Source: Verrucomicrobiota bacterium (lineage in GTDB: Bacteria; Verrucomicrobiota; Verrucomicrobiia; Chthoniobacterales; UBA6821). Taken from it: a stretch of 21,401 bases of DNA. Positions within the stretch are counted from its first letter, which is position 1. Each line of letters starts with the position of its first letter. The notes beneath the pieces were generated by a model. That model was not told where the DNA came from. It saw nothing but the letters and a program-made list of their open reading frames with translations, and made no database searches. The position numbers and the translations under genes were made by a program. Shown in pieces: positions 171 through 21,401 of the stretch. The stretch covers positions 1 through 21,401 of the forward strand of contig WBXG01000029.1 of assembly GCA_008932965.1 (NCBI GenBank), given 5' to 3'.

Positions 171-224
171 CAGCTTGCCTCAAAGTACGATTCAGTATGA
201 AATATGAAGTCTATCCGCATACTA
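171..224 (+). repeat. Decayed junction of the repeat family: right-end remnant (cagtatgaaatatg at 193-206) followed by a deleted left-end remnant (atccgcatacta at 213-224)
   Basis: 171-206 aligns with the right arm/end of full copies ('...cttcccggctttcgtagtagatcagtatgaaatatg'). The string 'ccgcatacta' recurs at 12711-12720, next to a full copy. It lies immediately upstream of the fabD start. Confidence 0.5.
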
Positions 225-4477: not shown

Positions 4478-4538
4478 GACTCCCCAGAAATAGGTGAAGT
4501 CATACTCCCCCTGGCGACTTCACAACAAAAATCACAAG

Positions 4539-4578
4539 AACCCCGGGTGCTCTGCATTTCCGGGGTTGTTTGTTTTTA
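4539..4578 (+). terminator. Rho-independent terminator of rpoA-rplQ
   Basis: An 8-bp stem of AACCCCGG (4539-4546) with CCGGGGTT (4560-4567), a 13-nt loop, then the T-rich run GTTTGTTTTTAT. It lies about 60 nt after the rplQ stop. Confidence 0.65.
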
Positions 4579-4586
4579 TATGACAC

Positions 4587-4774
4587 TTAACCCGCATATT
4601 TCATACTGGTTCGTCGCGAGGCGCCGTGCAAAGCCTATTAGTACAAGGCGGGCGAAGGATTGCGACTACGGCTGTATGTTTCATACTGCCCCCTCAATAA
4701 CAATTCGAGACCAACGCAGTAATAATGAATTTTGCACAAGCAGTAATAGATTAAGTGTGAAATATGCGGGTTAA
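4587..4774 (+). mobile_element. Palindromic TIR element, subtype 2 (184 nt plus duplicated TTAA), intergenic between rplQ and nadE
   Basis: TTAA at 4587-4590 and 4771-4774. Left end is 'cccgcatatttcatactg' and right end 'gtgtgaaatatgcggg'. The interior 'gaggcgccgtgcaaagcctattagtacaaggcgg' is shared with the copies at ~9759 and 21121. Apical hairpin 'ggctgtatgtttcatactgcc' is at 4679-4699. Confidence 0.88.
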
Positions 4775-4844: not shown

Positions 4845-6776
4845 ATGAAAATTGGCATTGCACAGATTAATACAACTGTTGGTGATCTTACTGGTAATGC
4901 CACCTTGATTTTTAATGCGTATAAAGAACTCGTTGCACAAGGAGCTGATCTTGTTATCACACCAGAACTCGCACTTACTGGATACCCGCCACAGGATCTT
5001 CTTTTTTCTGAGCATTTTATTAATGAGAATTTGAAGAGCCTCTCTTCTTTAGAAAAAAAAATTGGAACGGTCCCTCTCCTTGTCGGTTTTGTGGATAAAA
5101 ATAAAAACAGTAAAGGAAAGTCACTTTACAATGCAGCTGCACTCTTGCAAAGAGGAGCCCCACCTTGTGTGGCCCATAAACGCCTTCTCCCTACCTATGA
5201 TGTCTTTGATGAAGCTCGTTACTTTGAGCCCGGCAATCAATCAACCTGCTTTTCATATCTAGGAAAAATCTGGGGAATCACAATCTGCGAAGATCTCTGG
5301 ACTCCCGAATATTTACCTTGTGATCTTTATAGCGTTGATCCAGTTCAAGAACTCATTGTTCAAGGAGCGCAAATTATTTTAAACCTAAGTGCTTCTCCTT
5401 TTCAATTAGGCAAACCGGCACAACGTCTTGCAATGCTACAGGCGCAAGCAGAGCGATTCCAGCGCCCCATTGTCTATTGCAATTCCGTTGGGGGTAACGA
5501 TCAGCTGATTTTTGATGGACATTCCTTAGTCATCAATGCTCAAGGTAATCCCTGCGCTTTTTTTCAAGGATACATCGAAGAAAAAAATGTAATTGACCTC
5601 TCCCTGCCTTCTTATGGAGCAATAGAAACAAAGCGAGCACTCGAAATTTTTAAGAAAATAGATTCGATGCAGGAACTTCACGATGCCTTGGTCCTTGGTA
5701 TTAGGGATTACCTTAGTAAATGCGGCTTGGAACATGCCCTCCTCGGACTCAGTGGTGGTATCGATTCTGCAGTGGTTGCTGCACTCGCTACTGCAGCCCT
5801 TGGTGCAAAGAGAGTCACTGGAATCCTGATGCCTGGCCCCTACTCATCTCAAGGGAGCATTGATGATGCTGTTGCATTAGCCAATAACTTGAGTATCTCC
5901 CACCTCACCCTTCCTATTACTCCACTCTTCGAGGAGGCAAAAAAGAGTTTTCAAGAACCATTTAAACATTTGAAAGAGGACTTAACCCGGATAATTCATA
6001 CTGATCGTGACGAAGAGGCCGCGAAGGCTGATGGGCATCACTGGCGGTCGGAAGACCACGGGGGAGACTGTCGGAGACTTCCTTTAGGTAGCCCTGAAAG
6101 GGCGAGACAAGCAGGAGCGAGCGAGTCAACGCAGGCACGTATTTTGACGCAGGGCTGTATGAGTCCTTACCGCCCAAGTCAAAATGGGAATCTAACGCAG
6201 CATCCATCTAGCTTCCCAGCTTCCGTAGGTGATCGGGATGAAACATCCGGGTTAACTGAGGAAAATCTCCAAGCTCGCCTCCGCGGAGTCACCCTGATGG
6301 CTCTTTCCAACAAGTTGGGAGGCCTTCTTCTCACCACAGGAAATAAAAGCGAACTTGCTGTGGGCTACTGCACTCTCTATGGGGATATGTGTGGTGGTTT
6401 AGCAGTTATTGGTGATGTTCCAAAAACTGTTGTTTATCAACTGGCTCACTGGATCAATCGTGAGAAGGAAATTATCCCTTGGAACTCCATTCAAAAAGAC
6501 CCTAGCGCTGAACTTCGACCGAACCAAAAAGATCAGGACTCCCTCCCTCCCTACGATATTTTAGATAAAATTCTTGAACTGTTCTTAGAAGAAAATCAAT
6601 CTGTCACTCAAATCATGAATCAAGGCTTCGCTAAAAAAACAATCCTTTGGGTTATTCATCAAATTTATCGTAATGAATACAAGCGCCAGCAATCTGCTCC
6701 TGGTTTAAAAGTCACCAGTAAAGCATTTGGCCTGGGCCGACGTTTTCCAATAGCACAGGGTTATATTGAAAAGTAA
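4845..6776 (+). CDS. nadE: Glutamine-dependent NAD+ synthetase (NadE; CN-hydrolase domain plus NAD synthetase domain) carrying a 90-aa in-frame repeat-derived insertion
   Basis: The N-terminus 'MKIGIAQINTTVGDLTGN...PELALTGYPPQDL' is a nitrilase-type glutaminase domain. 'GLSGGIDSAVVAAL' is the PP-loop, with 'TEENLQARLRGVTLMALSN' and 'LLLTTGNKSELAVGYCTLYGDM' downstream. Total length is 643 aa, or 553 aa without the insert at 5982-6255. Confidence 0.9.
   Translation: MKIGIAQINTTVGDLTGNATLIFNAYKELVAQGADLVITPELALTGYPPQDLLFSEHFINENLKSLSSLEKKIGTVPLLVGFVDKNKNSKGKSLYNAAALLQRGAPPCVAHKRLLPTYDVFDEARYFEPGNQSTCFSYLGKIWGITICEDLWTPEYLPCDLYSVDPVQELIVQGAQIILNLSASPFQLGKPAQRLAMLQAQAERFQRPIVYCNSVGGNDQLIFDGHSLVINAQGNPCAFFQGYIEEKNVIDLSLPSYGAIETKRALEIFKKIDSMQELHDALVLGIRDYLSKCGLEHALLGLSGGIDSAVVAALATAALGAKRVTGILMPGPYSSQGSIDDAVALANNLSISHLTLPITPLFEEAKKSFQEPFKHLKEDLTRIIHTDRDEEAAKADGHHWRSEDHGGDCRRLPLGSPERARQAGASESTQARILTQGCMSPYRPSQNGNLTQHPSSFPASVGDRDETSGLTEENLQARLRGVTLMALSNKLGGLLLTTGNKSELAVGYCTLYGDMCGGLAVIGDVPKTVVYQLAHWINREKEIIPWNSIQKDPSAELRPNQKDQDSLPPYDILDKILELFLEENQSVTQIMNQGFAKKTILWVIHQIYRNEYKRQQSAPGLKVTSKAFGLGRRFPIAQGYIEK
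5982..6255 (+). mobile_element. Palindromic TIR element, subtype 1 long form (270 nt plus duplicated TTAA), inserted in frame inside nadE
   Basis: TTAA at 5982-5985 and 6252-6255. Ends are 'cccggataattcatactgatcg' and 'gatcgggatgaaacatccggg'. The interior matches the subtype-1 copies and carries an extra 90-nt module also present in the copy at 12906. No stop codon occurs in the nadE frame. Confidence 0.9.
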
Positions 6777-7181: not shown

Positions 7182-7365
7182 TTAACCCGCATATTTCATA
7201 CTGATCGTGATGAGGGGGCAGCAAAGGCTGATGGGGCAAGTCGAGTGATGAAGTCTGACGACGGCTGTATGAGTACATACTGCCCGAGGAGCAATTCGAA
7301 GCTGACGCAGTATCCATCAGTTGTTCGCAAGCTGCAGCAGAATCGGTATGAAATATGCGCGTTAA
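7182..7365 (+). mobile_element. Palindromic TIR element, subtype 1 short form (180 nt plus duplicated TTAA)
   Basis: TTAA at 7182-7185 and 7362-7365. It has the 'cccgcatatttcatactgatcgtga' left end, the 'ggtatgaaatatgcgcg' right end and the apical hairpin at 7263-7284. It lies between the convergent ORF 6783-7145 and msrB. Its right TTAA contains the msrB stop codon. Confidence 0.9.
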
Positions 7366-9758: not shown

Positions 9759-9946
9759 TTGAGCTTGAATATTTCAAACTAAACTCTCATGAAGCATCGT
9801 ACAAAGCTCATTATTATAAGACGGGTAAGGATAGTCATGCCGGACTGTCTATTTTCCTAATATCCCAATCACAATTCATGACCAACGCAACAACCATAGA
9901 GCTTCCTAGAATCTGTAGAAAATTTAGTATGAAATATCCGGGCTAA
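9759..9946 (+). mobile_element. Palindromic TIR element, subtype 2, degenerate copy (about 188 nt)
   Basis: 'gaatatttcaaactaaactctcatgaagcatcgtacaaagctcattattataagacgg' aligns with the 21121 copy ('gaatatttcatactaaagtgtcatgaggcgccgtgcaaagctcattagtacaaggcgg'). The right end 'agtatgaaatatccgggctaa' ends at 9946. The left TTAA and first TIR bases are mutated. Confidence 0.7.
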
Positions 9947-9973
9947 CCCTATCCTAACTAACACCTCTCTTCT

Positions 9974-10660: not shown

Positions 10661-11118
10661 GCACTCTAGACAACAGCATTCTTTTTTCAGAACAACATCC
10701 TATGATGACGCCCATTAGTGTGATGTTTTATGATACAGATGCTGCTGGGGTTGTTCACAACATTGCCTACCTTCGCTTTATTGAAACAGCGCGAACTCTA
10801 TTAGCCTTAGAATATGGAATGGATTGGGCTACTATGAAGGAAACCTCTGTTTTTCCAGTGGTTCTTCGCACTGAAATTGATTATCGATATCCTGCTCTCT
10901 TAGGTGACCTGGTGGAAGTTGAAAGCTGGATTGGAAAAATAAGTGCAGCACGTTTTTGGTGTCATTTTAACATTCATCGCCCCTCTGATGGGCTGCTCTT
11001 AGTAACCTGCAAGCAATCTTTGGCTTTTGTTAAAATGCCTGAAGGTAAAGTGCAACGATTGCCAAAAGGCTTTCCAACACCATTTATTCCACGAGCATCT
11101 CGGGATGGTGTTAGGTGA
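10657..11118 (+). CDS. Acyl-CoA thioesterase, 4HBT/YbgC hotdog family
   Basis: 'FYDTDAAGVVHNIAYLRFIE' is the typical YbgC-type catalytic Asp region, and about 150 aa fits a hotdog fold. The start codon overlaps the upstream stop (ATGA). Confidence 0.75.
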   Translation: MSTLDNSILFSEQHPMMTPISVMFYDTDAAGVVHNIAYLRFIETARTLLALEYGMDWATMKETSVFPVVLRTEIDYRYPALLGDLVEVESWIGKISAARFWCHFNIHRPSDGLLLVTCKQSLAFVKMPEGKVQRLPKGFPTPFIPRASRDGVR

Positions 11119-13115
11119 TCATTCCATTTCATTTTAAAATTAGAATGATCATGTTTCGAAAGATACATCTTACCACCCCTTTTTTCTTAGGTATTCTTGT
11201 ACTAGGACTTGGGATCTCCTCTCTGCTAGCTTCCGTGCCCCAAGAAGAAAAAGTAATCACTACTGATGAATACCTTTCTTATCTTAATAGCATCGCCCCT
11301 AGTGATACAGACCACCTCTATGAGCTTAAGATGGGAGAAGGAGCCCACCAAATCCTACGCCTTGGCACTCCAGGAGAGTATTACTATCTTGCCCCTTTAG
11401 AACAAAAGAAAAAGAGCCTGCTGCTCGTTTCCCTTGTAATGTCACAATTCTATTGCGACTGGAAAAATCGAGAAGCATCTGCTTTCTCAAATGAGGTTAC
11501 TATTGAGCAAGACCCCATTTCTGAACGAGAGAAGAGTAACCTTAGAGAAGATTCACAGGTCTTATTGCCCTATCCCAGGAGCACTCACTACGATCCCTTG
11601 CTCTCTTCCAATATTATTATCAATGTCATTTCCCAACTACAGGAAGATCTTGCAATTCCTCAAAACGAAGAAATATCTTGGGATTCATGGGAAATTGGTG
11701 GTACTATTTTGTTAGGATTAGTAGCTTTTGGTGGTGCTTCTAGCTGCTCTCATCCTGTAAGAGAGAGAGAGATCAGAGATGATTCTATTCCATACACGAG
11801 GAATGATCGCCACATTACCTTTGGTAATAATGAAGAGATAATTCACACCAACTCTCATTTCCTGAAAGGAGAAGATAAAATCCCAATTTTGAAAAATCAA
11901 TTGGATGTAAGTGATTCAGAAGATGAAGAAATGCTTCACGTGTTTAAGAATCAGTTGTTTTCAAGACAAATGTATTTAGATCGTGAAGATATCGATGATC
12001 AAGATCTCTTCAATGAGTCTAGCGCTAATATAAGAGTATTAGAAAATCTCCTATCACCGGAAATTCATCATAAATTTTTTAATGGGATCGTTGATAGCAG
12101 AACAATTCAAGAAATCCAAGATCTCATGGCCTCACATCAAAAGATTATTGAATGGACCGAAGATATCAGCATTGACGATCTGAGCATTAATCAACAGACA
12201 CGTAATCTTAAAAAGCTAACCGACTCTACAAAAAAAATTCTCGATACTAAAATGGGAATTCAGATTCATTCGATTCGAGTTGTTGCTGCCTCTTGTGTTT
12301 CAGATCTCATGGATCATGAAGTTAAAAAAGCCACACGAGAAATATTTTATCAGAGTTACTATGATTTGATTTCAAAGAGATATAATCATGCTCACACAAA
12401 CTTTGATCGTTTGAAACAACTCTACTACTTCTGCCAAGAGCATCAGATTCTCCCACTCAAAGAGCTTCAACAACTTGGAGAGCATGCCAATGCCAATAGC
12501 GCTCTTTGCAATAAAGTAGTTAAAAATTTAGAAGAGCTGTCATTCAATCGAGAAGAGCTTCAAGAACAGGATCGATGGTTAGCCCAAGAGACCGATGAGA
12601 TACATGCCATTATTAATGAGATTAAAAAGAAAGAGATCAGTCCAAATAGCATGATCGAACTAGAAAAGATTACTGCCCCCCTCTTAGAGATAAAATCCTT
12701 CAGTGAAGATCCGCATACTAACCCATTAACCCGCATATTTCATACTGATCGTGACGAGGAGGCCGCGAAGGCTGATGGGGCAAGGCGAGTGATGAAGTCT
12801 GACGACGGCTGTATGAGTACATACTGCCCGAGGAAGACTTCGAGCTCAACGCAGCATCTATCTGACTTCCCGGCTTTCGTAGTAGATCAGTATGAAATAT
12901 GCGGGTTAACCCGCATATTTCATACTGATCGTGACGAGGAGGCCACGAAGGCTGATGGGGCACCACCAGCGGTCGGGAAACGGCGGGGGGACTGCCAGAG
13001 ACTTTCTTTAAGCAGCCCTGAAAGGGCGAGACGAGCAGAAGTGAGCGAGTCAACGCAGAGGAGTAGCAGCGAAAGAATAGATGAAGAATCTATACTCGAT
13101 GATGAGCTTCGGTAA
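11115..13115 (+). CDS. Hypothetical membrane-anchored protein whose last ~125 aa are translated repeat elements
   Basis: A long ORF with no motif I recognise. The likely start is ATG 11145 or 11151 ('MIMFRKIHLTTPFFLGILVLGLGISSLLAS' is a signal/TM segment). A second hydrophobic segment is 'GGTILLGLVAFGGA'. From codon ~538 the frame runs through the elements at 12726-13058. Confidence 0.5.
   Translation: MIIPFHFKIRMIMFRKIHLTTPFFLGILVLGLGISSLLASVPQEEKVITTDEYLSYLNSIAPSDTDHLYELKMGEGAHQILRLGTPGEYYYLAPLEQKKKSLLLVSLVMSQFYCDWKNREASAFSNEVTIEQDPISEREKSNLREDSQVLLPYPRSTHYDPLLSSNIIINVISQLQEDLAIPQNEEISWDSWEIGGTILLGLVAFGGASSCSHPVREREIRDDSIPYTRNDRHITFGNNEEIIHTNSHFLKGEDKIPILKNQLDVSDSEDEEMLHVFKNQLFSRQMYLDREDIDDQDLFNESSANIRVLENLLSPEIHHKFFNGIVDSRTIQEIQDLMASHQKIIEWTEDISIDDLSINQQTRNLKKLTDSTKKILDTKMGIQIHSIRVVAASCVSDLMDHEVKKATREIFYQSYYDLISKRYNHAHTNFDRLKQLYYFCQEHQILPLKELQQLGEHANANSALCNKVVKNLEELSFNREELQEQDRWLAQETDEIHAIINEIKKKEISPNSMIELEKITAPLLEIKSFSEDPHTNPLTRIFHTDRDEEAAKADGARRVMKSDDGCMSTYCPRKTSSSTQHLSDFPAFVVDQYEICGLTRIFHTDRDEEATKADGAPPAVGKRRGDCQRLSLSSPERARRAEVSESTQRSSSERIDEESILDDELR
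12726..12909 (+). mobile_element. Palindromic TIR element, subtype 1 short form (180 nt plus TTAA), inside the 3' part of ORF 11115-13115
   Basis: TTAA at 12726-12729 and 12906-12909. It has perfect 25-nt terminal inverted repeats, 'ttaacccgcatatttcatactgatc' and 'gatcagtatgaaatatgcgggttaa'. The apical hairpin is at 12807-12828. Confidence 0.92.
12906..13058 (+). mobile_element. Palindromic TIR element, subtype 1 long form, 3'-truncated, in head-to-tail tandem sharing one TTAA with the preceding copy
   Basis: It matches the nadE copy from the left TIR through '...agccctgaaagggcgagac.agcag.agtgagcgagtcaacgcag', after which homology stops at ~13058. No right TIR is present. Confidence 0.85.
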
Positions 13116-18903: not shown

Positions 18904-20015
18904 AAAGGAATTCTGCGGTTTCTTAGTAGAGAGATAAAAATCTCTTGGTGCCTGGCTACCCAACGCTTTTGGTCAAAGAGAGCCTCTGCACGAATTCGTG
19001 CAGCATAGGCGTAGGATTCAAAATGAGGAACTATTTTTAAAACACCTTTTGCTAAGGCTGCTCCGGTCGGTGTGATCATTTGACTCCAATCAAGCGGCGC
19101 TGGAATTAACACCCCTGACTCTTCATCAACAAGCTCCAGAAGACCTCCAGAAGCAGATCCAACAACAGGACATCCCGAGGCTAATGCCTCCAAAACAACC
19201 GTAGGACACGGATCGAGATATTTTGGATGAAGCACGATGTGATGAGATTGATAAAGCCTTACTGCCTCTCCTTGACTGAAGGGAGGCAGAAGAGTCACGC
19301 GTGCAGTGAGTCCAAGACGTCCTATTTCACGCTTCACTAATGCGACCCCTTGAGGCCATTCACATTTTCCAGCGATTGTTAAAACAGCATCGCATCCAGC
19401 ATCAACTAAATTTTTCAAACACTCCAATGTTGAAAAAACACGTTCAGCATAACCATGGGTGCCAAGAGTCAAGAGGCGTAGTGGAGAGAGTGGAGGACGT
19501 ATGGGTGAAGGAAAATAAGTACCAAGATCAATCGGATTAAAAAGAATTTCACTGGGTGCTAAGCAGGGCCCTAAAAAAAACTCTGCTGACTCCCGACAAA
19601 AAGCACTTTGATAAATGACATAATCTGCCAATGCTCGCAATCGCCTCATCGGAGCATTATGACCCTCCGTTCCCTCCCCTGCCCATGCAGGATACCCTAC
19701 TCCATTTTGATTCCAAACGAAGATCATTCCGCAGCGGCGTGCCTTCTTAACGAGGTCCTGGGAAAAGGGAGGTTGAGCACTGCTCACCAAATAGAGAATG
19801 TTGCTTTTTTTTTCATTGATTGAAAAAGCATCACGTAATGCAAGAAGCTTGACTGCTCCACCATGAATAACAGTACGGTTTTCTAAAACTCTCCCTAAAG
19901 CTAGTATAGGCTCTGAGGCATTGGAATGTTCCACCTCACGTCGTCTCCACCAAAAAAAAAGTCGCTTTGGAAAAAAGAAACAGCGACGCATCAACGATAA
20001 AAAAAACATCTTCAT
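18900..20015 (-). CDS. Glycosyltransferase, GT-B fold (GT4 / group 1)
   Basis: The C-terminal 'PTVVLEALASGCPVVGSASGGLLELVDEESGVLI' is the E-x7-E nucleotide-sugar binding region of GT4 enzymes. The ATG at 20015-20013 overlaps the epimerase stop (ATGA). Confidence 0.8.
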   Translation of the reverse strand: MKMFFLSLMRRCFFFPKRLFFWWRRREVEHSNASEPILALGRVLENRTVIHGGAVKLLALRDAFSINEKKSNILYLVSSAQPPFSQDLVKKARRCGMIFVWNQNGVGYPAWAGEGTEGHNAPMRRLRALADYVIYQSAFCRESAEFFLGPCLAPSEILFNPIDLGTYFPSPIRPPLSPLRLLTLGTHGYAERVFSTLECLKNLVDAGCDAVLTIAGKCEWPQGVALVKREIGRLGLTARVTLLPPFSQGEAVRLYQSHHIVLHPKYLDPCPTVVLEALASGCPVVGSASGGLLELVDEESGVLIPAPLDWSQMITPTGAALAKGVLKIVPHFESYAYAARIRAEALFDQKRWVARHQEIFISLLRNRRIPL

Positions 20016-20929
20016 ACAAGCAGTTTTCTAATTTCTTCTAGAATATTTTTCTGAGGCTTCCATCCTGTAAGTTTAGAAAATTTCGAAGAGTCGATGCAAG
20101 AATGAGCTACATCCCAAGCGTAGCGTTCATGGTATTGAACCGACAAAACAACATTCAATGCCTGCTCTACTGCAAGTGCTAATTCCAAGATAGAAAAATT
20201 GTTCCCTGAACCTATATTAAAAATACCACTAGTTGGTAGGCTTAAAGCCGCTTGTAAGGCGGAGAGAAAATCATCGATCCAAAGGTAATCCTTACTACAA
20301 CGGCCGTCGCCCCAGATTGTGACCGTTTCTTGCGTGTTTGCTGCTGCAATCATGCGAGGAAGAATTCCCTGTGGATATTTTGGGTTAGAAAGAAAACCAA
20401 GAACATTAGTAATCCGTAACAAAATAGGCTGGAATGAAGAGTCCTCCTGGGAGGCCTTAAGAATCATTTCTTCTGCTAGCAACTTATTCTGAGCATATCG
20501 ACTGATAGGACGAGTAGCACCTTGTTCTGTCACGGGCTCTTCTACGGTATTTCCATAGACGGAGGCAGAAGAAAAAAATAAAAATCGAAGTTTCTTTGCT
20601 TCTTTTGAAGCAAGCCTTGCAGCCTCTAATAACTTTTTTAAAAGCGGTATATCTTCACGCTCCTCACGCCCAGGATCCTGCTCGCTTATAAAAGGAACGG
20701 TGCTCCAAGCAGCATGAATCACTGAATCAAAAGTGGCCATTACCACAGGATCCAAAAGGTCATTGAGTTTTTGAAACTCCTCTCCCCCTGTACGCGAAAA
20801 AAGAACAACATCGTATCCTGCATTATTCAGAAAATTGGCTACAAGACCTGCTAATCGACCACGTCCGCCGGTGATTGCGATTCGACTTGGAGCCTCTTGT
20901 TTTTTTAATGTTTCAGAAGATATTTTCAT
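20012..20929 (-). CDS. NAD-dependent epimerase/dehydratase (extended SDR)
   Basis: 'IAITGGRGRLAGLVANFL' is a Gly-rich Rossmann motif, 'SRYAQNKLLAE' the YxxxK catalytic motif, and 'NIGSGNNFSILEL' is also present. The start is taken as ATG 20929-20927 ('MKISSETL'). The 49 upstream codons of the track ORF are antisense translation of the repeat element. Confidence 0.8.
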   Translation of the reverse strand: MKISSETLKKQEAPSRIAITGGRGRLAGLVANFLNNAGYDVVLFSRTGGEEFQKLNDLLDPVVMATFDSVIHAAWSTVPFISEQDPGREEREDIPLLKKLLEAARLASKEAKKLRFLFFSSASVYGNTVEEPVTEQGATRPISRYAQNKLLAEEMILKASQEDSSFQPILLRITNVLGFLSNPKYPQGILPRMIAAANTQETVTIWGDGRCSKDYLWIDDFLSALQAALSLPTSGIFNIGSGNNFSILELALAVEQALNVVLSVQYHERYAWDVAHSCIDSSKFSKLTGWKPQKNILEEIRKLLV

Positions 20930-20940
20930 GAGCAGCAGAC

Positions 20941-21124
20941 TTAACCCGAATATTTCATACTGATCGTGACGAGGAGGCCGCGAAGGCAGATGGGGCAAGG
21001 CGAGCGATGAAGTCTGACGACGGCTGTGTGTATACACACTGCCCGAGAAAGACTTCGAGATCAACGCAGCATCCATCTAACTTCCCGGCTTCCGCAGTAG
21101 ATCGGGATGAAATATTCGGGTTAA
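20941..21124 (+). mobile_element. Palindromic TIR element, subtype 1 short form (180 nt plus TTAA), 11 nt upstream of the epimerase start codon
   Basis: TTAA at 20941-20944 and 21121-21124. Ends are 'cccgaatatttcatactgatcg' and 'cgatcgggatgaaatattcggg'. The apical hairpin 'ggctgtgtgtatacacactgcc' is at 21022-21043. Confidence 0.92.
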
Positions 21125-21401
21125 CCCGAATATTTCATACTAAAGTGTCATGAGGCGCCGTGCAAAGCTCATTAGTACAAGGCGGAAGAAGGATTGTGAC
21201 GCCGGTCTGTAGGAGTCCCTACTGCACACGTCAAAATGGGGGTTTTTGTGATAATCACTCTATCATATTTCCTGAATGAATTTTTATGAGATAGGGTGGT
21301 CCTTTGATAGGACTAAAATTTGACTCCTAAACTCCAGAAAATATTTTGACTCATGAGGTCTTGATTTCCTGCTGCTGCATTGTAGAAGAATGAAGTATCC
21401 C
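21121..21401 (+). mobile_element. Palindromic TIR element, subtype 2, sharing a TTAA with the preceding copy; either a long variant running off the window or a truncated copy
   Basis: Positions 21121 to ~21242 align with subtype 2 copies ('catgaggcgccgtgcaaagctcattagtacaaggcgg...'). 'gtcaaaatggg' is shared with the nadE long form. The last bases, 'ttgtagaagaatgaagtatccc', resemble the right end of the 9759 copy ('ctgtagaaaatttagtatgaaatatccggg'). The interior from 21243 to ~21370 is unmatched. Confidence 0.6.

Follow-up and report, generated by a model that had tools for sequence, protein, structure and literature searches.

What kind of sequence lies at positions 12726-12909 of contig WBXG01000029.1 (assembly GCA_008932965.1, from a member of the Chthoniobacterales in the Verrucomicrobiota), and has its capacity to fold back on itself been kept by selection? 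The stretch analysed here, hereafter the window, comprises 21,401 nucleotides. An initial annotation of it described the element as an extended imperfect palindrome whose differences between copies preserve pairing, argued that the fold itself is under selection as single-stranded DNA (ssDNA) or RNA, and left the object unnamed. The object is a copy of a small non-autonomous transposon of the MITE type (miniature inverted-repeat transposable elements), with IS1380-type ends and target site, and a full-length hairpin is usual for this class. The explanation that we find best overall, and hold with moderate confidence, is that this MITE has been selected via its folded top strand while propagating.

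The focal copy (+ strand) measures 184 bp, that is, a 180-bp element and one extra TTAA. Its ends form the perfect inverted repeat of 25 nt that had been annotated (12726-12750 and 12885-12909); since the outer 4 nt of this repeat are the TTAA target duplication (12726-12729 and 12906-12909), the terminal inverted repeats (TIRs) proper are 21 nt long (12730-12750 and 12885-12905). The 180-bp body is quasi-palindromic, and the rod formed by the + strand joins both TIRs in a single stem. Folding the 184 nt as a single strand bears out the rod-like hairpin claimed for the whole element: RNA parameters give one rod of -97.7 kcal/mol (dinucleotide shuffles, -51.9 +/- 3.7; z -12.4), and DNA parameters likewise give one rod, of -51.6 kcal/mol (z -10.4). 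At the apex lies the hairpin GGCTGTATG-AGTA-CATACTGCC (12807-12828, + strand), with a conserved T.T mismatch between T12810 and T12825, and in the mid-stem (12794-12841, + strand) GAAGTCT at 12794-12800 faces AGACTTC at 12835-12841. The apical hairpin and the two mid-stem segments had been placed correctly, as had CTATC at 12858-12862; the pairing of GATGG with the latter also exists, although GATGG lies at 12774-12778 and not at 12771-12775, a position that had been given as approximate. The mid-stem of the focal copy (version v1) is one of at least four sequence versions, every one of them self-complementary, the equivalent place in other subfamilies being occupied by CATTTTGAT/ATCAAAATG, GGATTTTGGC/GCCAAAACC or GGATTGC/GCAATTC.

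This copy belongs to a family. Scanning the window for the terminal motif gave 16 ends where 0.07 were expected, corresponding to about nine copies of three related types, all in identical orientation: type A (184 bp; 7182-7365, 12726-12909 and 20941-21124), type B (274 bp; 5982-6255, plus a truncated copy at 12906-13058) and type C, of about 188 bp (one copy at 4587-4774, another, degenerate, at 9760-9949 and a third truncated from 21121). Many matching ends are found in several metagenome-assembled genomes (MAGs) of Chthoniobacterales/Spartobacteria, on contigs whose likeness to the window consists of the elements only. Our sample comprises 75 non-redundant full copies from Chthoniobacterales MAG contigs, with some of the counts below using 78 copies. 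The flanking 4-mers are identical in 54 of the 75, with TTAA on both sides 43 times, and non-palindromic direct repeats occur as well (TTAG/TTAG five times; TTAC/TTAC, CTAA/CTAA and TCAG/TCAG once each). As the flanking 4-mers are direct repeats even where they are not palindromic, the unit is a 180-bp element with 21-nt TIRs and a 4-bp YTAR duplication, mostly TTAA; copies in tandem have one TTAA in common. The element is small and carries no transposase gene, the sole open frame of its 184 bp being a 61-codon read-through with neither start nor stop of its own. Insertion is polymorphic, a site in nadE being empty or filled according to lineage. A search of a plasmid collection returned no match, and a limited literature search found no description of the family, nor of any IS1380-type MITE in Verrucomicrobiota; the family seems to be undescribed. 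One metagenome contig (Ga0123353_10056533; locus L112, 4160-4210) shows two TIRs abutting over one TTAA without any body (CCCCATGAAATATCCGGGTTAACCCGGATATTTCATGGGG), an arrangement that may be a remnant or may mark where two elements adjoin.

Judged by their sequence, the ends and target of the MITE are those of a clade of IS1380-family insertion sequences (ISs). The terminal 15 nt, CCCG.ATATTTCATA, and the 4-bp YTAR duplication are identical in the MITE and in IS1380-family ISs of about 2 kb. One of these 2-kb elements (L075), found in a Verrucomicrobiia MAG and bounded by CCCGCATATTTCATA...TATGAAATATGCGGG, encodes a 478-aa IS1380-family transposase (NF033539, 323 bits; PF13701, 1.6e-126). Four further full ISs (L164-L167) have matching ends and TTAG/TTAG or CTAG/CTAG duplications, and in a Pseudomonadales MAG a transposase with 38% identity is accompanied by identical ends next to TTAA. 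Transposases of the L075 type are very abundant in metagenomes (thousands with at least 86% identity), mostly on contigs of about 2 kb, as is expected because the repeat breaks assemblies. IS1380 transposases are DDE enzymes, prokaryotic relatives of piggyBac, and we take the CCC...GGG termini beside TTAA to resemble piggyBac ends. In published analyses IS1380 serves as the prokaryotic outgroup of piggyBac (PMC10813416). Because the MITE and these ISs have both ends and duplication in common, the MITE was most likely moved in trans by an IS1380-family transposase. The two differ in that the MITE has no transposase and an interior unrelated to the subterminal parts of the full ISs compared with it, which are themselves not palindromic over their length. 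Against mobilisation by this clade it must be said that no such transposase was found in the window or in the fetched MITE-bearing Chthoniobacterales contigs, that the genomes in which full ISs with such ends were found are different ones of higher GC content, and that beyond about 15 nt the MITE interior is unlike the ends of L075 or L164-L167. A closer parent IS of the MITE may exist.

The rod has been kept among diverged subfamilies through changes on both sides of its pairs. A stable fold is found in most copies, 71 of 75 folding with z < -3 relative to shuffles (median z -8). For type A, 35 copies were aligned by sequence only, the reference rod was mapped onto the alignment and the pairs were counted; in the controls the partners were slid by 1-3 columns, which keeps relatedness, or shuffled. 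The reference structure was mapped in this way because subfamilies and chimeras blur the middle of a mixed MAFFT alignment, on which RNAalifold found no more than the apex and the TIR stem. In the type A alignment 86.5% of cells are paired (30-43% with slid partners), 27 pairs have changed on both sides (12-17), 140 cells carry a double change (19-54) and the covariation score is 0.215 (0.06-0.09). Shuffling leads to an expectation of 53 double-change cells, and none of 500 shuffles reaches 140. Eight of the 13 pairs of helix 6, in the mid-stem, change on both sides. A separate alignment of 21 type C copies gives 84.1% of cells paired (31-41% slid), 23 pairs changed on both sides (8-15) and 72 cells with a double change (12-38). 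In both alignments the covarying pairs are mostly of the G:C/A:U type, with G:U intermediates present. Covariation in a larger alignment, whose absence the initial annotation had named as a refutation of its claim, thus exceeds shuffled and slid controls in types A and C alike. The apical variants from which that claim arose are also present: the 20941 copy has GTGTG/CACAC and the 21121 copy GTAGG/CCTAC. Of 31 type A copies, 30 retain the reported T:T mismatch as T.T or T.C, as do 17 of the 19 of type C (47 of 50 in all).

One strand of the original argument does not hold. At the TIR position after CCCG, the three combinations reported are there (C/G at 12726, A/T at 20941 and G/C in the nadE copy at 5982), and the two ends agree in 42 of 75 copies where 28 are expected (permutation p 0.00025), but they disagree in the other 33, and the autonomous 2-kb IS1380-family copies show identical concordance (C/C, G/G and A/A, with one C/G). 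The ends of those ISs are too far apart for such a rod and are concordant nonetheless, so that three different base pairs at this position are weak evidence and do not support the fold. Local homogenisation was also considered, but outside the window tandem neighbours gave no sign of it in their TIR variants.

Wobble of the G:T(U) kind is tolerated on the top strand alone, whereas A:C is not tolerated there. In 68 of 78 copies the + strand gives the more stable fold of the two, the mean difference being 10.9 kcal/mol. When helices were defined by Watson-Crick pairs only, so that neither strand was favoured, the single mismatches within them were G:T in 126 cases and A:C in 30; distinct mismatch contexts numbered 73 and 29 (p 1.6e-5), and mismatch variants common to several copies 22 and 1. 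An energy-free count, with three Watson-Crick pairs on each side, gave 47 G:T against 8 A:C, whereas a count over whole-length self-alignments, which forces pairs in non-helical parts, shows the effect weakly (502 against 412). The G:T excess cannot be put down to mutation bias, the flanks being C-rich on the element's + strand and the element itself having a GC skew of +0.10. Mismatches so strongly confined to one strand are to be expected if a single strand, be it ssDNA or RNA, is constrained in its folded form, and constraint on the folded top strand is likely. The proposal that the fold is under selection as ssDNA or RNA therefore stands in part, carried by the one-strand constraint and the covariation; the argument from the TIR is weak, and selection at each resident site is, for reasons given below, not supported.

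The alternative that survives best is that the fold acts as RNA, the element being transcribed with host genes or from a promoter of its own and serving as a site for RNase III/E, as an mRNA stabiliser or terminator, or as a small RNA, as reported for ERIC, Correia, bcr1 and QMITE. Tolerance of G:U on one strand with avoidance of A:C is a classic RNA signature, and the preponderance of G:C, G:U and A:U among the covarying pairs is in keeping with it. Published MITEs give structured transcripts, and in bcr1 compensatory changes are found at the RNA level (PMC10969869, PMC3184786). Of 14 copies within open reading frames (ORFs), moreover, 10 have the + strand as sense. However, G:T is the most stable mismatch in DNA too, so the asymmetry does not separate RNA from ssDNA. 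Most copies (64 of 78) are intergenic, and relative to the nearest upstream gene 23 intergenic copies have the same and 24 the opposite orientation, which means that in half of them transcription would yield the weaker strand; nor can the orientation of the element be predicted from the coding strand that predominates at the locus (26 against 21). No sigma-70-like promoter or intrinsic terminator was found in or at the element, and Rfam gave no match at the gathering score, only generic hairpins far below threshold (MIR8001, for example, at 32 bits against a cut-off of 90). An RNA role for the fold appears to us rather doubtful.

It could also be supposed that there is no selection on the fold at all, and that template switching at quasi-palindromes, gene conversion between arms and recombination among copies have kept the two arms complementary, the concordant TIR variants being inherited from different IS lineages, with the concordant ends of the autonomous ISs as a parallel. 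Arms do recombine. The copy at 7182-7365 (+ strand) is a chimera whose left arm is of type A (v1) and whose right arm is v4, and it pairs poorly (-70.8 kcal/mol, z -4.8, against -97.7 kcal/mol for the focal copy); L007, L059 and L087 likewise mix the arms of subfamilies and fold less well. In L095:4341-4524 and L026:2679-2866 the reverse complement of a type A right arm is joined to a type C right arm. Such chimeras suggest that copies recombine often, also in inverted orientation. The mid-stem, furthermore, differs between subfamilies in blocks and not at single sites, and single-copy variants are strand-symmetric in one count (14 against 14), while in another they lean to G:T (51 against 28). 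Yet copying should be blind to the strand, and G:T exceeds A:C by about 4:1 overall and by 22:1 among multi-copy variants. Copying from arm to arm would also erase several features that are in fact retained across subfamilies: the left and right arms are distinguishable in all types, with large orientation score gaps, and so have not been regenerated from one another, the apical T.T mismatch is conserved, and one G:U pair is present in 34 of 35 type A copies. We consider it unlikely that such processes account for the fold without selection.

Some observations nevertheless weigh against selection of the MITE via its folded top strand, the explanation that we favour. The poorly pairing chimeras persist; because they fold worse and are still there, selection at each resident site is argued against, and it seems to be the propagating lineages, not the resident copies, on which the constraint on the folded strand acts; that the host benefits from the individual insertions at their sites is less likely. 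The strand symmetry of single-copy variants in one count is a further point, and the counts that compare common with single-copy variants are small and ignore the tree. The results on GC skew and tandems described next rest on 48 loci and 10 pairs, some of them possibly from related genomes. DDE transposases, finally, act on double-stranded ends, and no mechanism of IS1380 or piggyBac elements is known to us in which a single strand must be folded.

Orientation, skew and tandem arrangement provide hints, modest in size, that lean towards a DNA-level, replication-linked role. The + strand of the element lies on the locally C-rich strand, that is, against the local GC skew, in 35 of 48 loci (35 against 13, p 0.002). 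Gene orientation behind this association was ruled out, the skew of coding strands being about 0, and with coding strands lacking skew the bias looks like an effect of the replication strand. Tandems with one common TTAA are head-to-tail in 10 of 10 cases (the window junctions at 12906 and 21121, and L020, L026, L037, L095, L108, L123, L132 and L134), in the combinations A-B, A-C, C-A, B-C and A-A; this rule could reflect directional insertion, or the loss of long perfect palindromes from head-to-head pairs. A scan of metagenomes for tandem junctions recovered mostly unrelated palindromic sites or other elements, along with four new informative tandems.

In the mechanism that we propose, the folded top strand would be the form selected during propagation of the element, and the setting would be replication-associated ssDNA, whose foldback would present both ends together to the transposase. 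That ssDNA specifically is the selected form is a tentative suggestion, possible but short of probable. A more exacting version holds that the spread of a DDE-type MITE depends on its strand-specific fold, with top-strand foldback at the replication fork as the substrate or template of mobilisation; it would jointly explain why wobble is confined to one strand, why copies tend to lie against the GC skew and why tandems are strictly head-to-tail, and in that strong form we think it improbable.

Copies found inside genes raise the question of whether the element is selected for what it encodes. The NAD synthetase of the window (nadE, 4845-6776) has 643 aa, where homologues usually have 542-555 aa. 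In the NadE alignment the insertion site is a single loop (...PF.HLKED / SGLTEENLQ...) with conserved flanks. In the window this loop holds a 90-residue insert, the type B copy at 5982-6255 (+ strand; 274 bp, that is, 270 bp plus TTAA; 90 codons, in frame); one related MAG has two tandem type A copies there (L106, 4138-4501; 120 residues, checked in the DNA), another lineage has one type A copy (60 residues), and more distant relatives have none. All of these inserts are in identical orientation and frame. Elsewhere in the protein (alignment columns 307-358), another NadE homologue (P0004) has about 52 extra residues; these are unrelated and may represent a different inserted repeat.

The focal copy itself lies in frame inside ORF 11115-13115, the 666-aa ORF passing through both this copy and the truncated type B copy that follows it head-to-tail over a common TTAA (12906-13058, + strand; right part missing). 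The ORF ends 57 bp past the truncated copy, its last 19 residues, which may be the native C-terminus or an extension brought about by the MITE, lying beyond it, and on the opposite strand ORF 12718-13053 is likewise open through the focal and truncated type B copies. The body of the element is 60 codons long, and of 36 type A copies 24 have a length that, less 4, is a multiple of 3. Each strand has frame 0 (TTA ACC CG.) open in 14 of the 36, against 0-1 of 36 for the other frames. It is this combination of a 60-codon body and one frame open on both strands that lets copies survive inside genes as in-frame inserts.

These same properties, together with the apparent translation of copies within nadE in several lineages, could be cited in favour of the view, put forward for Rickettsia palindromic elements (RPE), that selection acts on a peptide module which the element encodes. 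Coding constraint was nevertheless rejected, as column conservation has no three-base periodicity (0.82, 0.78, 0.77); the preponderance of intergenic copies also speaks against a peptide module, which moreover does not predict complementary changes in two arms, and such selection is very improbable. That the element is a remnant of an IS200/IS605 or REP/RAYT system, moved by an HUH enzyme and inserting beside a TTAA-like tetranucleotide without duplication, is hardly credible: its strand-specific fold, its head-to-tail tandems with one TTAA and its orientation bias with respect to GC skew do resemble ssDNA transposons, but those systems have no TIRs, no duplication and separate hairpins at their ends, whereas here long true TIRs pair with each other, the flanking 4-mers are direct duplications of variable sequence, which contradicts that mode of insertion, and the ends are those of IS1380-family DDE elements.

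The remaining copies in the window are as follows. The type A copy at 20941-21124 (+ strand) is 91% identical to the focal copy, has the apex GTGTG/CACAC and the TIR variant A/T, and folds with z -11.2; it is followed head-to-tail by the truncated type C copy at 21121-21245 (+ strand; right boundary approximate), whose apex is GTAGG/CCTAC. A listed - strand ORF (20012-21076) begins inside the 20941 copy; since the true start codon is probably located downstream and encodes the internal methionine of 'MKISSETLKK', this MITE pair would sit just upstream of an epimerase-like gene. The type C copy at 4587-4774 (+ strand, 188 bp) is intergenic between rplQ and nadE, directly after a terminator-like hairpin. 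When window 4530-4774 is compared with L106 2690-2935, the hairpin (AACCCCGGG...CCGGGGTT, then a T run) is found downstream of rplQ in both genomes, each has a MITE after it, and the right junction is identical; the L106 copy is partly inverted relative to that of the window and is preceded by a solo TIR remnant. The degenerate type C copy at 9760-9949 (+ strand), with a decayed left end, lies between gpsA and lolD, and a right-end remnant, CAGTATGAAATATGAAGT, is found at 190-214 (+ strand).

A long hairpin in a bacterial MITE is ordinary, and the family must be seen against what is known of others. Bacterial MITEs form stable full-length stem-loops (PMC10969869), compensatory base changes keeping the structure have been reported for bcr1 (PMC3184786), and RPE lie in frame within housekeeping genes, where their translation yields additional loops (PMC10969869). 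Each of these features, rod fold, compensatory change and in-frame insertion, has thus been published for other bacterial MITEs. Like ERIC, Correia/NEMIS, bcr1 (Bacillus cereus group) and QMITE (Coxiella), the present element is 100-300 bp long and non-coding, has TIRs and a short target duplication, occurs in many copies and forms one long stem-loop; unlike them, it is hosted by Verrucomicrobiota (Chthoniobacterales) and has IS1380-type ends and a YTAR/TTAA duplication of 4 bp. With RPE it has in common the occurrence of palindromic repeats in frame in housekeeping genes, here inserts of 60, 90 or 120 residues at one site of nadE. It seems to have no sequence relationship to them, however; its hosts and ends are different, and it also differs in its clear TIRs, its target duplication, its candidate transposase family and the intergenic position of most copies.

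Four aspects of the family deserve attention: wobble on one strand only, the bias with respect to GC skew, tandems that run head-to-tail, and the inserts in NadE. Through this family a MITE is connected with the IS1380/piggyBac lineage, whose targets are of the TTAA type. After Rickettsia, it provides a second independent case of palindromic repeats as in-frame inserts in a housekeeping enzyme, and the NadE inserts are relevant to the annotation of proteins from Verrucomicrobiota MAGs. Dozens of diverged copies with paired changes, of which one strand is wobble-tolerant, amount to a clean natural data set, and the family makes it testable whether MITE hairpins matter for mobility, as DNA, or for transcripts, as RNA.

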